A stretch of DNA of 64,000 bases from a virus (lineage: Duplodnaviria > Caudoviricetes): the IMG/VR virus record IMGVR_UViG_3300033075_001021. One strand, written 5' to 3'. The translations under genes and the position numbers were made by a program. The notes under the pieces were generated by a model. That model was not told the DNA's origin. It made no database searches and saw only the letters and a program-made list of their open reading frames with translations. This document shows, one piece after another, positions 51,819 to 58,841 of the stretch (positions within the stretch are counted from its first letter, which is position 1; each line of letters starts with the position of its first letter).

Positions 51819-52220
51819 TTATAATTCCTTCCACATATATCCGACACCTTTAAACGTTTGAATATTGGGAACATTGATTCTCGAACGTATTTTTCGAATG
51901 TGCACATCTATAGTACGGTCACCAACAATGATATCATTACCCCAAATGATACTCATGATAGAATTTCTGCGCATTACTTTGTTTTTATTGGACATCAAGT
52001 AATACAACAGCTCGAATTCTTTACGTGGAAACACGTGGTTAACACCATCATATGTTACATGAAATCTTTCAGGGTCGAGAGTCACACCATCACTTTCAAT
52101 TACAGGAAGCTTATTAAGACCTGAGGCATTTTTTACCAATTCAATGATTTCCTCCTTGGTGAAGACGGTTTTATCGATATCAAGAATTTCATTGATAATG
52201 TTATTAGCAATTGCTATCAT
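51819..52220 (-). CDS. OmpR/PhoB-type winged-helix DNA-binding protein lacking a receiver domain
   Basis: PRKEFELLYYL.....V..R..I...IWG....VGDRTIDVHIRKIR.....I.T..GVGY. Confidence 0.9.
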   Translation of the reverse strand: MIAIANNIINEILDIDKTVFTKEEIIELVKNASGLNKLPVIESDGVTLDPERFHVTYDGVNHVFPRKEFELLYYLMSNKNKVMRRNSIMSIIWGNDIIVGDRTIDVHIRKIRSRINVPNIQTFKGVGYMWKEL

Positions 52221-52253
52221 ATGTTTGATTTTGAATGTAAAGTTAAGGTTAAT

Positions 52254-54022
52254 TTAAACCCAATCCAAAACTAAATTGGAAGAATTTTGTAACATCCAAT
52301 CGATTATATAATCTTTTGGTACGGTGCTTTTAATGTCATTGACATATCGATACCCTTCAATGTCATCGAGCCAAAATTTACCATTCATATTGTGATACCA
52401 TTCAGGTAATTTTTTATTCTTTGTGTCATAAACACAACAAGAAATTTTAATCAAGTTAGCCCTTTCCACTTTTTTAAGATGCTTCATTGCTTCATGCATC
52501 AGGGTTATCTTGCTGGTCATAACACCCTCATCTAATGGGGTTTTTATGAACACTTGTTCCCTGTCATGGAAAGTATAAATCATTTCAAGTACCATAATAT
52601 TTGATTTTGAATGTAAAGTTAAGGTTAATTTTTGAATCTACCAAATAAAAAAAGAGCTATCTTTCGATAGCCCCTTTTTCTATAATCAATCAATCATGCA
52701 CTAATGGTTTGAATCGCTTTTGCTGGTCTTCAGGAAGATAAGCGATGAGATTTTCTTCAGGTACAAACCTTAACAGCTCGAATATTGCCGATACGTCTCC
52801 AGCCTCAATATCTTTCTTTATCTGCACAATAGCAGTATCAATCAGGTCGTCTTCATGCATACGCTTTTGAAGACGTTCAATAGCATCTTTATCTTCAGTA
52901 TTCATATATTTAATTTGTTGACAATTAACAATAGTAAATGGAAGTGCCATGAAAAGTATAAGTGGAAGTAGCACAAACCAATCACCCACAATAAAATATT
53001 TTATGATAAATTGTTTGATGCGTTTCATGATACAAAGATAAGGGTATTTTCTGAATCTACCAAATTATAATGTAACAAGTTGGCAATAATCATCCAAATC
53101 AATCAATGGTATTCTACCATAATTCGCGGATGAATAATACCCTTGTTGTTCATAACGCTTCTTCCATTCCCTGTATGCTGCAAGGGCTTTCTTCTTTGAT
53201 GAATAGGTATCTGTTGGATGAATACTAAACCCATCGGGGGAAAGCACATCATATTTTACTTTTGCCATGATACAAAGATAAGGTTATTTTCTGAAACTAC
53301 CAAGAAATTACTTGAATTCTTTTTCCGTCACTTCCTTCCCATTCGGTTTTCACACCGTTGGCATTGAGAATGTCACAGATTTCCTGTGCATCACCAGCCC
53401 ATGCCAAATGAAATGGTTTTCCCTTTACCTTATCCTCATTGTCTTGACCATGATAGAATACAGCCTTTTCAGCTTGTTTATCAGTCATTGCTGCCCAGCC
53501 GCATGATTGGCAACACCAAAAGTTTTGTTTGGCAAAATAACCAGCTTTGCGTAAAGCCCTGAATGCTTTGTTGAGATTTGCGTTATTCATGATTGATTAA
53601 TTTTGTAACACAAAGATAAGGTTATTTTCTTAAACCACCAAATATTTTTATACTTTGGTGATAAGTTGTTTTTCAACCTTTGTGATATCTCCACCAGCGC
53701 CCCATTGCCAAAAACCTGACAAATGCACTGCGTGTTTAATAACGTCTTCCAGCTTACCCTCAAAGTAACCCAAAAGTGGTTGATGATGATGCCCACCCAT
53801 ATCACAGTTAGGGTCTTCACCTCTTACTTCCCACAAACCCACTTCATCCAGCGTGTGTTTTTTTAACAATCGCTGTCCACCGTAACGCTGAAGAAAGTTA
53901 TTTACCTTATCGTCTTCATGAAGACGGTGCATATCTTCTTTGAGCTTTTCTTTTCTCTTTTCCAGCTCTTTGATTTGCTGGTCAATTTTTTTGATTTCGG
54001 CGGGAATATTTGCTTTGTCCAT
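52254..54022 (-). CDS. Five small genes (52254..52595; 52690..53028; 53065..53268; 53297..53590 DUF6891-like; 53648..54022)
   Basis: Each has its own promoter; AF..L...G..A.QNFWCCQSCG in 53297..53590. Confidence 0.65.
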
Positions 54023-54082
54023 GATTGATTGATTTTATAATGCAAATATAAGACTATTTTCTGAAAGTACCAAAAAAAATTT

Positions 54083-54194
54083 GGGGTGCGATGGGAACCA
54101 CTTCAACCTGAATGTACCTTTCAGATTTATTCCTTGCTCCACATACATATTACGTAATTCTGTATGCTTCTGCTTGGAAGGTTCCCCGCACCCC
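54083..54194 (-). ncRNA. Structured RNA motif B, copy 1
   Basis: Three-way junction with compensatory changes versus the copy at 55874. Confidence 0.75.
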
Positions 54195-54206
54195 TTAACA
54201 AGGTTT

Positions 54207-54349
54207 GGGAATTCGGTGGACGGGCGAGTTTAACTTCAAACTTTTAATCAAACCCGCCTCCGCAGCAAGGCTGTTCACGTGCGCTTATAACGTTATTATC
54301 ACACGCCCCCTATCACGTACTACTCAACTATGAGCGTCCCCGAATCCCC
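54207..54349 (-). ncRNA. Multibranch structured RNA A1
   Basis: GGGGAUUCGG-GGACG/CGUCC-A-CCGAAUUCCC closing stem; 13-bp GGCGGGUUUGAUU/AGUUAAACUCGCC arm. Confidence 0.6.
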
Positions 54350-54357
54350 TAATATGT

Positions 54358-54663
54358 TTACCAGAATAATGATGTTCTTAACTTCACCTTGCTCACAATC
54401 CATTTGGTAATTTCATCAGCCCAATAACTTGTGGAAAGGTCGCAAAGGAAATCAGCCAGTTCACGTTGAACATTCTCTGCATCAGCGTTGAATGTCTTAC
54501 GGGTAAATTCCTTTGCATTGCTTTGGTTACTGCTCCGTCTTGAGCCAGTGGAGAAATCCCACTCTTTCCCAATAACGGTAATTTGTTTGTCTTTCACTTC
54601 AACGGTGATAACGCCACCTTGTGCTACTTCACCTAATTTCCATGTTTTAGTTGCCTTTGCCAT
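54358..54663 (-). CDS. 101-aa RNA-cassette-associated protein, copy 1
   Basis: Paralog of 56193..56498 (MAK.TKTWKLGE). Confidence 0.75.
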   Translation of the reverse strand: MAKATKTWKLGEVAQGGVITVEVKDKQITVIGKEWDFSTGSRRSSNQSNAKEFTRKTFNADAENVQRELADFLCDLSTSYWADEITKWIVSKVKLRTSLFW

Positions 54664-54754
54664 GATTGATTAATTTTGTACCACAAAGATAAGGTTAATT
54701 TTTGAATCCACCAAATAAAAAAGAGCTATTTTTCGATAGCCCCTTTATAATCAA

Positions 54755-55829
54755 TCATGCACGGAGTTCTTTATACACCCCCCATTTTTCTTCAGGGAGG
54801 TACTGGATGAGTTGTTCTGTTGGGCAATTACTCAATAATTCCCATATCGCCGATACATCTCCAACCTCAATATCACGTTTGATTTCCTCGATAACGGTAT
54901 CGATTAAATCATCCTCCAATTGTCGGCGGGATTCAATCTCATCACAGTGACAGCCAAAACCATCTACTGCTGGACAATCAGGGTCATGTTGTAATTCGTT
55001 TTCCATAATACTTTAAACTTTAACAAGCTGGCAATAATCCGCTAAGTCTTCTAACGGAATTCTGCCGTAATTTGTGGATGAATAATAACCCTGCCTTTCA
55101 AATCCTTTCTTCCATTTCTCGAAAGCGGCAATGGCTTTTTTCTTTGAGGAATATGTGTCTGAGATGTGGATGCTAAACCCATCGGGGGAAAGTACATCAT
55201 ATTTTACTCTTGGCATTGTTATTCTTCTTTAAAGGTGATACCTTCTTGACGTAAAACGCCCATCAGGAATAATTCTCTTGTGTCATTGGTATAAATACCT
55301 TTCCATGTATAAACACCGTTACCCATGTATCGAGCATACTTTTCAAAATTGGATTGATATTTCTTCTCCAATTTCTCACGTTCTGCTTTGGTTTTACCCA
55401 AACGACTTTCAAGATATTTGATTCTGTCATTCATGATACAAAGATAAGACTATTTTTTGAAACTACCAAATGTTTTTAGGTTGATAACCATATTAAGAAA
55501 TCTGATAGTTCGCAATTCTTTTTTGGAAAAATTGTTGTTCTCCATGAAGAATTTTTCCACTTTTTAATCCCCCTCAACCCACAAAAAGTTCTCCACTTAT
55601 CTTTTATCCATTCATCATTAGTGTTTTGAGTTATATCATGTAATTCAATATGATAATAGTGTCTTAATGAAACTGCTGAGTCATACCAAGCAATTGAATA
55701 CAGACCTAAATTTCCATGCTCTGATTTATCATTGATATCACGAATCATGAAAATATTATTGTGGGTCGACTTTGTTTCAATAGCAATACCTCTTGATGGG
55801 AATTCAAACCTTTTTTTAATGATTTCCAT
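54755..55829 (-). CDS. Four small genes (54755..55006; 55013..55216; 55219..55434; 55476..55829)
   Basis: First two are paralogs of 52690..53028 (C-terminal half) and 53065..53268. Confidence 0.65.
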
Positions 55830-55873
55830 GTTACAAATATAAGACTATTTTTTGAATGTACCAAAAAAAATTA

Positions 55874-55988
55874 GGGTGCGATGGTGAAAACTTTTCAGTC
55901 CGAATGTACTTATCAGACCTAATCCCACTCCACATAACATATTACGTAATTCTGCTATGCTTCTGCTTAGATGTTTTCACCCGCACCC
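55874..55988 (-). ncRNA. Structured RNA motif B, copy 2
   Basis: See copy 1. Confidence 0.75.
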
Positions 55989-56006
55989 CTTAAATATTTT
56001 TATTGT

Positions 56007-56185
56007 CACCCTACCCTGTTACGAACAAGATTTTCTACCTATATGGATAACGTGGCCTTTGTTTTACTGTGTACCACCACTTCACTATGTACCTCGCAAA
56101 GAATTACGTGGCCAAACAAACCATATAAGTTGTTCTATCTACCGTTAGTTGCAACCATTGGTAGTCCCTTTGAACTATTAGGGTG
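56007..56185 (-). ncRNA. Multibranch structured RNA A2
   Basis: CACCCUA/UAGGGUG, CUACC/GGUAG, GAACAA/UUGUUC and CUUAUAUGG/CCAUAUAGG stems. Confidence 0.55.
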
Positions 56186-56192
56186 TTGTATA

Positions 56193-56498
56193 TTACCAGC
56201 CGTATTCAGGCTCCAGTTTAACTTTGGTTTTAATCCAGTCAATAACCTGTTCGGCGTAATAATGTGTTGTCAGGTCAGAAAGAAAGTCATACAGTTTACG
56301 ATACGCCTCCCTGTCATTAGCCAATACCGTTCCCCTTGTCCATTCCTTTGCACCACTTTGGTCGCTGCTTCGCTTTGTACCTTTGGACATATCCCATTCT
56401 TTGCCAATTACGGTAATTATCTTACCAGTAATTTCAACGGTTATGATACCACCCTTAGCCCACTCACCCAACTTCCACGTCTTAGTTGTTTTTGCCAT
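56193..56498 (-). CDS. 101-aa RNA-cassette-associated protein, copy 2
   Basis: Paralog of 54358..54663. Confidence 0.75.
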   Translation of the reverse strand: MAKTTKTWKLGEWAKGGIITVEITGKIITVIGKEWDMSKGTKRSSDQSGAKEWTRGTVLANDREAYRKLYDFLSDLTTHYYAEQVIDWIKTKVKLEPEYGW

Positions 56499-56551
56499 GA
56501 TTGATTATTTTTGTACCACAAAGATAAGGGTATTTTTGGTACTAACCAAAT

Positions 56552-58841
56552 TTATTTTCGGAATTCATTTACCTTTGCAACCAATTCGTCAAATTTCTCA
56601 AAAGTAACCAATTTACAGCCAACTGAAATGCCTTTAGTACTAATTATGGCATCATATTTATCTGTTAACTTTGGTACTACCCTTGTAGATACGTTTTTGA
56701 AAACCTCCTTTGCTACTTCAATTGCCCCAGCAAAATTAGTGTCTAAATCAATTGTATCAGGTGAACCTGAAAAAGACATTGCAGGTATATTTGGCATTTC
56801 CTTCCAATGTGCGCAGAAATAAATACAAGCATTTTGAAAATTTGTATAGTCATCTACCGATTCTTTTTTGTTAAATTCGGAATTCCAAACCCAACCAATC
56901 TTTTCACACTCTATAATGAATGCGTTGTAAACACTTGCAAAACGACTTTTAACGGCGAAATCTTTTTTCATGATTGATTAATTTACAACAAAGATAAAAT
57001 TATTTTTCTTAACCACCAAATAATTTTGCCAAAGATTTTTGCTGCTGAATCTTTTCCACAATATCCTTCTTGGTTAAACGATTGGCATATTGGAAATGCC
57101 ACGCATCCCACAAAGGTAAATGGATAAGTTGAACAGGCTTTGTTGCCGCTACCATGTATTCAGCGTAACCATCAGCAACAGGAAATTTGATTACTTCACC
57201 AATGTTTTCATCGGTTACACCCGCCCTTGCCGCACGGTCAACACACCACTGTTTAAGGTCTGCTTTAAACTTGTCGCAGTCCTTGTTGTATTGGTCAATG
57301 TCTTCCCAATTAAAATCAGGTACCTTGATTTGTTCAGGTACGTCATAAACCTTTGCCATAATGATTGATTTGATTATGAAGCAAAGATAGGATTATTTTC
57401 TGAAACAGCAAAAAAAACATCAACTATTTCAAAATTATTTTCTTTGGCCCACTGAACCGCTTCATCATGCGAAGCAAACCCTTCTTCAATCATATGGCCA
57501 GCTTCATCATGGATATCGAAGCTACCATCGAATTCGTATATTGTTGCTTGTTTCATATTACGCTAATGCCGCACCGATTAGAATACCAAATATCACACAA
57601 GCAAACAGAAACCCAGCGGCAAATGCCATTAATATTGCTTCGTATAGTTTGTTGTCTTGTTGCATATTGGTTAGATTTGTGGAAATTTGTATAACGTTCC
57701 TTTAGGTGCATAGCTTGTAGGGATAAACGTTCTGCTACCTTTTTCACTGATAACCCAATCAGCAAAGCCATGCCGCTTCATATAGTCCTTCATCCTATGA
57801 ATATCACACTCACGAATACGCATCGCTTCAGTCATTAAGGTAGTGTATGATACACCCGTATCGGTTAAGGCTTTCACCTTCTCACCATCTCTGTACTCCA
57901 AACCCTCAACCCAAACGATAAAGTATTTTTTCTTTCTCATAACACAAAGATAAGACTATTTTCTGAAACAACCAAATTAAATTTCAATAACACTAACAGC
58001 CCATTTAACTTTTTCTTTCTTATCTTCTTTAGATAAGAGAACAAATTCAACCCATGTATTTTCAGGGTTCAAGTTAAATAGTGGGACAGCTATTTCATAG
58101 CAACGCTGGGCCAACCAATCATATGTTACATGAAAGGGTGTTTCATGAAATTCACAATCATAGTCATAATCATCATCCTTTAACAACAACGTATTAGCAC
58201 GTACCAAAATATACAATGATTCGGGTACATCAACAACTTTCCGTTCGCCCTTAAAATAGAATGAAAACTTTACCATGATTATTAACTTTGTAACACAAAG
58301 ATAAGACTATTTTTTGAAACTACCAAAACTTTTTTTGTCTTTTTGTGAATTGGCTGGTTACGTCCCTTGGATTGCTGGTTTGTCCTTCAGCATAATAAAG
58401 GACGCTATGAACATGCTCATCCTCATGCATGTCTTCATTGATGAACTTTCTTACCTCATCTGGGGTATCAAAGTCTAAATGATTTTCTGTGTAATCATTA
58501 CCACCTCTTGTGGCTTCACGAACTTCAACGGAATAAGTACCTAACATATAGATTGATTTAATAGATTGCAAAGATAAGACTATTTTCAATACCCTGCAAA
58601 TTTATTTTGAATTCTTTAATACTTCACCAATAGCAGTGTGCAAATCTTTGAGTTGTTCCCTCGTCATACATGGAACCATAAGGGTATGAAAATTCATATT
58701 CCTTCTGTCGGCTCCACTATGCCCATCAGGATAAAGGTTATTATCTTCAATGGATAAGTAACCAACATCACCAGTCAAACCAACATAAATTTTATGCCCA
58801 TTTGCATAAGTTATTCTCTGTGCTAATTTTTGTTTTGCCAT
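56552..58841 (-). CDS. Run of small hypothetical genes (56552..56971; 57009..57359; 57374..57556; 57558..57665; 57671..57940; 57977..58276; 58320..~58547; 58602..58841)
   Basis: Promoter-headed cassettes; 57558..57665 is a 35-aa membrane peptide not in the ORF track. Confidence 0.6.

Follow-up and report, generated by a model that had tools for sequence, protein, structure and literature searches.

The 64,000-nucleotide (64-kb) stretch of phage DNA analysed here as a whole (Caudoviricetes, IMG/VR virus record IMGVR_UViG_3300033075_001021; hereafter, the window) carries on its − strand two copies, A and B, of a structured element that we call Z, each of them downstream of a gene for a protein of 101 amino acids (aa). 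According to its sequence, its minimum free energy (MFE) fold, and its score with the covariance model R1 (87.8 bits), copy B (54083-54194, −) is a 112-nt RNA shaped as a three-way junction, and by the same measures (122.8 bits) copy A (55873-55989, −) is a 117-nt variant of this fold in which P2 has 9 bp and the apical stem 8 bp. The upstream gene of copy B, paralog B (MAKATKTWKLGE...; 54358-54663, −), is an open reading frame with a separate promoter of the Bacteroidota type (TTTG at 54712-54715 and TATCTTTG at 54684-54691), and that of copy A, paralog A (MAKTTKTWKLGE...; 56193-56498, −), is an open reading frame 58% identical to paralog B. Thus, both copies of Z do lie downstream of paralogs of one protein, as had been proposed in a model's reading of the letters alone (the original prediction). 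Directly past P1, copy B runs into AAA + U8 (54072-54082, −), presumably a termination tract, and copy A into AA + U8 (55863-55872, −) in the same arrangement. The promoter that follows takes its -33 box from the last TTTG of the U run of copy B and has its -7 box, TATATTTG, at 54043-54050.

Fold, covariation and strand of Z

P1, the basal helix of Z, is an 8-bp stem in which 7 pairs are G-C (GGGGUGCG/CGCACCCC, with GGGGUGCG/CGCACCCU for copy A); it is followed by a 2-nt AU bulge on the 3' side and by P2, which comprises 7 bp in copy B or 9 bp in copy A (GGGAACC/GGUUCCC versus GGUGAAAAC/GUUUUCACC). Arm 1, or P3 (GCAUACA/UGUAUGU versus GCAUAGCA/UGUUAUGU), holds a purine-rich internal loop in which AGAA faces GGA and is capped by the 13-nt loop L3, GAAUUACGUAAUA, which contains the 10-nt palindrome AUUACGUAAU, unchanged in all copies. 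Arm 2, or P4, has 7-8 bp (AAUCUGAA/UUCAGGUU versus GGUCUGA/UCGGACU) and ends in a loop, L4, that contains GUACA and reads AGGUACA in copy B. All the stems and loops that the original prediction had listed for two − strand copies are present in the sequence, and the MFE folds agree with them, since ViennaRNA returned the same three-way junction for both window copies, with energies of -46.0 (copy B) and -40.9 kcal/mol (copy A). Compared with shuffled sequences, these folds have z-scores of -5.72 (copy B) and -5.37 (copy A), with none of 200 shuffles being as good. Moreover, in a check free of any alignment, four relatives each folded alone into the same junction, with z-scores from -4.2 to -7.5.

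The covarying RNA structure of Z on the − strand is genuine. The alignment used to assess covariation contains 8 distinct sequences (6 beyond the window copies) and was fitted to the model, so it leans towards the structure; standard pairs occupy 97.0% of its pair cells, and both-side changes occur at 11 pairs, 7 of which are in the P1-P2 helix (all in P2), 2 in P4, and 1 in each of two parts of P3. The covariation first noticed between the two window copies stood up to both controls, as none of 500 shuffles reached any of the observed measures and pairing fell to 28-51% when the partners were slid by 1-3 columns. Nevertheless, the aligned sequences are of only 2-3 types from one narrow clade, so that few independent events underlie the statistics; the covariation of Z is good though shallow. 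Whereas P2, P3, and P4 covary, P1, L3, and the GUACA of L4 are invariant. Four pairs of Z have G-U or U-G as their commonest type and more G-U cells are found elsewhere, which fits an RNA of the − strand, i.e., the strand of the 101-aa gene. R1, which was built from sense-strand sequences, scores 77-145 bits on the sense strand versus 17-23 on the antisense strand, in keeping with the strand that had been read from the G-U pairs alone.

The invariant palindrome could also be viewed at the level of DNA, where ATTACGTAAT would be the duplex operator of a dimeric regulator acting on the promoter located ~100 bp downstream. It is a perfect 10-bp palindrome and the same in all copies, as such an operator might be. 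However, the stems on its flanks show covariation, paired insertions, and G-U pairs, none of which an operator would need, and the window holds just one other occurrence of its core, TTACGTAA, as many as chance alone would give in 64 kb. We consider this function very improbable.

None of the 4227 models of Rfam 15 matched anywhere in the window at gathering thresholds. Over 53900-56300, with E values up to 10, nothing was found on Z or on X and Y, two further modules considered below, and the sole match at E ≤ 10 in that region was a DapZ-like plain terminator (54713-54768), with 18.5 bits versus a threshold of 56. A blastn search of the 3-kb region against GenBank phages gave no match, and ARAGORN found 0 transfer RNA or transfer-messenger RNA genes in the window. 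Judged against Rfam 15, Z constitutes a new RNA family, and the original description of it as an undescribed RNA stands. The compact three-way junction and its conserved junction and loop nucleotides would be compatible with a new class of self-cleaving ribozyme; a ribozyme was among the functions initially suggested. However, no known self-cleaving ribozyme in Rfam (hammerhead, twister, pistol, hatchet, hepatitis delta virus-like, and others) matched even at E up to 10, and the genomic context offers no repeats or rolling-circle features that would call for cleavage. A resemblance of CUGAUAAG to the hammerhead was rejected because its CUGA is helical and lies inside the covarying P4, not in a hammerhead core. 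The ribozyme proposal thus finds no backing, and we hold it to be extremely improbable.

Distribution of Z and its place behind the 101-aa gene

Relatives of Z were sought in the contigs of close relatives of the protein, by one protein-independent pattern scan of metagenome DNA, and by applying R1 to all fetched loci; the metagenome scan used an exact pattern, and divergent members would therefore be missed. Z is present in 11 loci with ~10 distinct sequences, all metagenomic, namely the two window copies, L001 (identical to G001), L007, L008-L011 (one locus), L016, L018, L057 with L058 (one locus), L061, L066, and L067. The metagenome scan gave 5 matches, 2 of them true Z elements directly behind a 101-aa gene; L015, L017, and L019 were chance matches without the stems. 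In IMG/VR, a first exact pattern, which was too strict, found 0 sequences, and two looser ones recovered only a single 310-kb contig. This relative, G001, is a complete genome of 310.5 kb with terminal repeats, and it contains one 101-aa gene and one Z. The promoters follow the Bacteroidota pattern (TTTG, ~20 nt, and then TAnnTTTG) and, together with the complete 310.5-kb relative, they identify the window as part of a giant phage of Bacteroidota. R1 detected no Z in 36 loci retrieved by a whole-family alignment search (protein 27-73% identical), in 3 Bacteroidota metagenome-assembled genomes that carry the protein, or in 151 sampled Bacteroidota genomes, a result that holds for those searched only. 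The distribution of Z is narrow, covering a small group of uncultured giant Bacteroidota phages.

In all 11 loci, the upstream neighbour of Z is the 101-aa gene, whereas the gene past Z varies among loci, in no fewer than 6 ways. The linkage between Z and this gene had been proposed from the two window copies, which derive from one tandem duplication and, therefore, are not independent evidence of it; the linkage itself is nevertheless upheld by the 11 loci, two of which came from the protein-independent scan. Such constancy despite varied downstream genes, together with the presence of Z behind both A-type and B-type paralogs, would be in line with Z being the RNA partner or the autoregulatory operator of the adjacent upstream protein, and a dimeric binder would be well matched to the palindromic loop. 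However, the protein occurs mostly without Z. It has more than 640 (641) relatives or clusters in metagenomes, on contigs of up to 289 kb, and yet 0 of the 36 loci from the whole-family search have Z, which has also been lost in close relatives (protein 84-86% identical), with 4 groups of close relatives being devoid of it. Moreover, Z and the gene have had separate histories, as Z can be 99% identical where the genes are only 69-73% identical. Thus, the part of the original ribonucleoprotein proposal that placed Z always beside the protein is confirmed, but an obligate ribonucleoprotein is argued against, and the role of partner or operator seems distinctly unlikely.

The 101-aa protein has no match in Pfam or PHROGs. 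AlphaFold2, with 40 sequences, predicts four strands and then two helices, with a predicted local distance difference test score of 87. The best Foldseek match in the PDB has a non-significant E value of 0.17, and the best VIA-align match, with a Z-score of 6.2, is to a designed protein, while RNA-binding folds such as the ribosomal protein PSRP-3 and MRP1/2 follow with Z-scores of ~5, under the tool's stated noise level. Searches of the ESM Atlas by features and by shape returned nothing usable for this protein. In the JGI annotation, the family members P0123, P0124, and P0208 bear the names 'DNA polymerase III alpha subunit' and '3-hydroxyacyl-CoA dehydrogenase', which look like annotation errors for a 101-aa protein without a Pfam match.

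In 8 loci, Z starts 10-13 nt past the stop codon (TGG TAA ACATATnnAA and then GGGG), a gap too short for a separate promoter, which implies co-transcription with the 101-aa gene. In the window copies and in L007, X and/or Y sit between the gene and Z. Past Z, A2-3 + U8 always follows, and the last TTTG of the run serves the following promoter as its -33 box. In the same slot, L056 has a plain hairpin, GGGGUUA/UAACCCC, followed by U7 and with the same GGGG...CCCC flanks, and L012, L062, and L063 have module X and then a plain terminator in place of Z. Plain terminators in this slot of sister phages indicate that Z sits where the terminator of a monocistronic unit belongs. The phage of the window also offers an example of a plain terminator, an ordinary hairpin reported by the terminator scan at 54719-54746 (−), at the end of the upstream duplicated unit. 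The separate non-coding RNA (ncRNA) of ~115 nt put forward in the original prediction is therefore not sustained, given that Z occupies the terminator place of the gene and has, in those 8 loci, no space for its own promoter.

Z can be exchanged between phages independently of the genes around it. The genes of L001 and L067 are 73% identical at the DNA level and 67% at the protein level, and those of L066 and L016 are 69% identical, whereas Z is 99% identical in both comparisons; conversely, L001 and L008 have genes that are 85% identical and Z elements that are 73% identical. In sliding profiles, an identity of 96-100% begins at Z, spans the next promoter, and then gives way to noise; Z and the promoter thus move as one recombination block between phages. 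Examples of this block are L001:3317-3490 versus L067:1817-1990, and L066 versus L016 and L061, in all of which the flanking genes are 55-75% identical or unrelated.

Such a block, the presence/absence polymorphism of Z, and the 15-17-bp inverted repeat formed by the P1+P2 ends might point to a selfish or neutral DNA element, either an inverted repeat resembling a miniature inverted-repeat transposable element (MITE) or a recombination linker spreading among co-infecting phages. Nevertheless, Z has one copy in the complete 310-kb relative and two in the window, always at the same gene end and never at unrelated sites, whereas MITEs are characterized by many copies at unrelated sites, conserved terminal inverted repeats, and target-site duplication. 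The P2 part of the repeat covaries rather than keeping its sequence, G-U pairs leave the DNA repeat imperfect, and the shared block extends beyond the repeat into the promoter. Moreover, L059 (860-900; protein 85% identical), which has neither Z nor the U run, retains GGGGTG and so represents a deletion, not an unfilled target; its junction, AAGGGGTG joined to GTTTCAG, fits a microhomology deletion between two GGTG words. We consider a selfish or neutral DNA element quite improbable.

Z as a candidate 3'-terminal domain of the early mRNA

The reading that we favour, with a probability of roughly 0.45, is that Z forms the 3' end of the transcript as an RNA domain with a terminator built into it, which would end the transcript, probably stabilise it, and present its invariant loops and purine-rich internal loop to a partner. 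Host RNA polymerase would begin at the Bacteroidota-type promoter of the gene and read the 101-aa gene, plus X or Y in some phages. Z would then be transcribed, and its invariant GC-rich P1 with A2-3 + U8 would act as, or replace, an intrinsic terminator. The monocistronic early mRNA would, in this way, end in a compact three-way junction able to resist 3' exonucleases, which would expose two sequence-invariant loops, GAAUUACGUAAUA with its palindrome and the GUACA loop, in addition to the purine-rich internal loop. The probable role of these conserved unpaired stretches is to bind in trans a partner, which could be a second copy of Z, giving a loop-loop dimer, or a dimeric protein of the phage or the host. 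The analysis establishes the fold of Z, with its covariation, strand, and position, the plain terminators that replace it in relatives, and its absence from Rfam; termination, stabilisation, and partner binding are inferred.

The invariance of L3, P1, and GUACA amid covarying stems would be explained by selection on unpaired sequence, which a plain terminator would not need. L3 contains, as a kissing loop does, a self-complementary sequence of at least 6 nt within a hairpin loop (AUUACGUAAU), and ~1% of shuffled L3 loops hold a 10-nt palindrome. A 10-bp duplex between two L3 loops is predicted at -10.3 kcal/mol, a value that speaks for plausibility only, since dimer formation is predicted from energy alone. 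A contact between L3 and L4 within one molecule was also considered and rejected, as it is unsupported by the sequence and would have 3 bp and -1.2 kcal/mol.

With regard to termination, Z resembles intrinsic terminators and terminator-containing small RNAs derived from 3' untranslated regions (3' UTRs) in having a GC-rich basal stem (P1, 8 bp) and then a U run (U8) at the end of a monocistronic unit, and it shares both the slot and similar GGGG...CCCC flanks with the plain hairpin terminators of sister phages. However, P1 encloses a 95-100-nt junction with invariant loops, compared with the 3-8-nt loop of intrinsic terminators, and AAA or AA precedes the U run, which in such terminators begins 0-2 nt past the stem; Z was not reported by a consensus terminator scan. 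Several observations weigh against a 3'-terminal domain of this kind. The 2-3 A between P1 and the U run and the ~95-100 nt enclosed are atypical for an efficient intrinsic terminator, Z has been lost in L056 and L059 and is thus dispensable in some settings, the invariance of the loops leaves no covariation with which to probe a loop-loop contact, and the sequences are few, with ~10 distinct Z elements of 2-3 types in one narrow clade.

Alternatively, Z could be cut from the 3' UTR, or made as a short terminated product, and act in trans as a stable stand-alone ncRNA, e.g., as a host-factor decoy or sponge, or as an RNA that assembles with itself by means of its palindromic loops. Z is a closed domain with its 5' and 3' ends paired, X, Y, and Z are arranged in beads-on-string fashion, and both the invariant loops and the predicted L3-L3 pairing would serve such an RNA. 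Also in its favour, homo-oligomers are known for phage-associated RNAs both short (manA) and large (ROOL and GOLLD) (bioRxiv 10.64898/2026.07.01.735769; PMC12286853). However, Z has neither a processing site nor its own promoter, and no result indicates a particular target. The UACAU in L4, the site recognised by the Bacillus and Staphylococcus MazF, would make an endoribonuclease decoy one example, but it is a 5-mer only. On balance, a stand-alone ncRNA appears rather unlikely.

Compared with other structured RNAs, the 3'-terminal domain that we favour for Z shows partial similarities to several systems. The dimerisation initiation site of human immunodeficiency virus 1 (HIV-1 DIS) is a palindromic kissing-loop dimerisation element, and Z, like kissing-loop and self-assembling RNAs, has conserved self-complementary sequences in apical loops (10 nt in L3 and GUAC in L4) and is associated with phages. 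The packaging RNA (pRNA) of phage phi29 is an RNA of ~120 nt built on a three-way junction, with loops that make RNA-RNA contacts by pairing left to right. Z has a similar size and also a three-way junction but, unlike pRNA, it has no Rfam match, its loops are palindromic, and it is located in the 3' UTR of an early gene away from packaging genes. Flavivirus 3' UTRs are modular and contain exonuclease-resistant RNA (xrRNA) and dumbbell modules based on junctions. In a similar way, X, Y, and Z fold independently in series and have been gained, lost, or duplicated between relatives, although here the genome is that of a bacterial DNA phage and homology is absent. Phage T7 has RNase III processing hairpins between its early genes, and processing leaves a protective 3' hairpin. 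Z is likewise an intergenic bulged stem between early genes but, unlike the T7 hairpins, it is branched on top, has invariant loops, and its P1+P2 comprises only 15-17 bp. Finally, ROOL, GOLLD (PMC12286853), and the manA motif (bioRxiv 10.64898/2026.07.01.735769) are self-assembling bacterial or phage RNAs to which Z has no sequence or model similarity; it is much smaller than ROOL and GOLLD, and its oligomerisation is predicted by energy only.

Phages have yielded few structured RNAs, most of them without a known function; to these, Z adds a compact case of ~115 nt with clear covariation and two invariant loops. Moreover, the sister phages that have a plain terminator or a deletion instead of Z constitute natural comparison constructs.

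Modules X and Y, duplication and neighbouring genes

Module X is a conserved structured domain of ~180 nt located between gene A and Z (~56007-56185, −), recognized by its conservation and predicted pairs. It has 36 predicted pairs, 9 of them with both-side changes among 4 sequences, and conserved cores such as AAACAAAGGCCACGUUA, and it also occurs at L007:3306-3494, L012:3314-3522, L062:1797-2010, and L063:1010-1214. A 17-mer of X searched in IMG/VR gave 3 chance matches in coding regions. Module Y is a closed GC-rich domain between gene B and Z (~54207-54349, −), with the closing stem GGGGAUUCGGGGACG/CGUCCACCGAAUUCCC, an MFE of -60 kcal/mol, and a z-score of -4.45. It shares with Z a GGGG at the start and a CCC + AAA at the end. 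Outside the window, Y was found only at L007:3497-3650, the two copies being near-identical, and L007 has X, Y, and Z in series. The 310-kb relative has neither X nor Y.

In a broader possibility, the 3' UTR would be a slot for independently folding RNA cassettes (X, Y, and Z) exchanged among phages through recombination, and Z would self-associate through its 10-nt and 4-nt palindromic loops into homodimers or higher assemblies acting in trans in the course of infection, e.g., as a scaffold or decoy. If this were true, phages would have in Z a small equivalent of the self-assembling RNAs that cryo-electron microscopy has recently revealed, although we judge this unlikely. In any case, the modularity of X, Y, and Z and the Z-promoter block, near-identical between otherwise diverged phages, illustrate how giant Bacteroidota phages shuffle their non-coding modules.

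The tandem duplication that gave rise to the two window copies has a unit of ~2 kb and spans 52690-56498 (−). Each unit comprises the 101-aa gene, X or Y, Z, 1-2 variable genes, a 67-aa gene, and an 83/112-aa gene; the paralogs are 58%, 76%, and 59% identical, and the internal genes have been swapped. Among the neighbouring genes, the 97-aa protein encoded at 53297-53590 (−) belongs to Pfam DUF6891 (E 1.8e-20), and the 124-aa protein encoded at 53648-54022 matches phrog_33851, a family of unknown function (E 3.3e-32). Throughout 52000-58000 (−), and in most of the related loci, almost all small genes come with a copy of one and the same long conserved promoter block (TTTGGT..TTCA.AAAATAGTCTTATCTTTG), and terminators are found on only some of these small genes. 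In many relatives (L008, L012, L063, L067, and L068), a receiver-less Trans_reg_C (OmpR-type) gene is located a few genes downstream.

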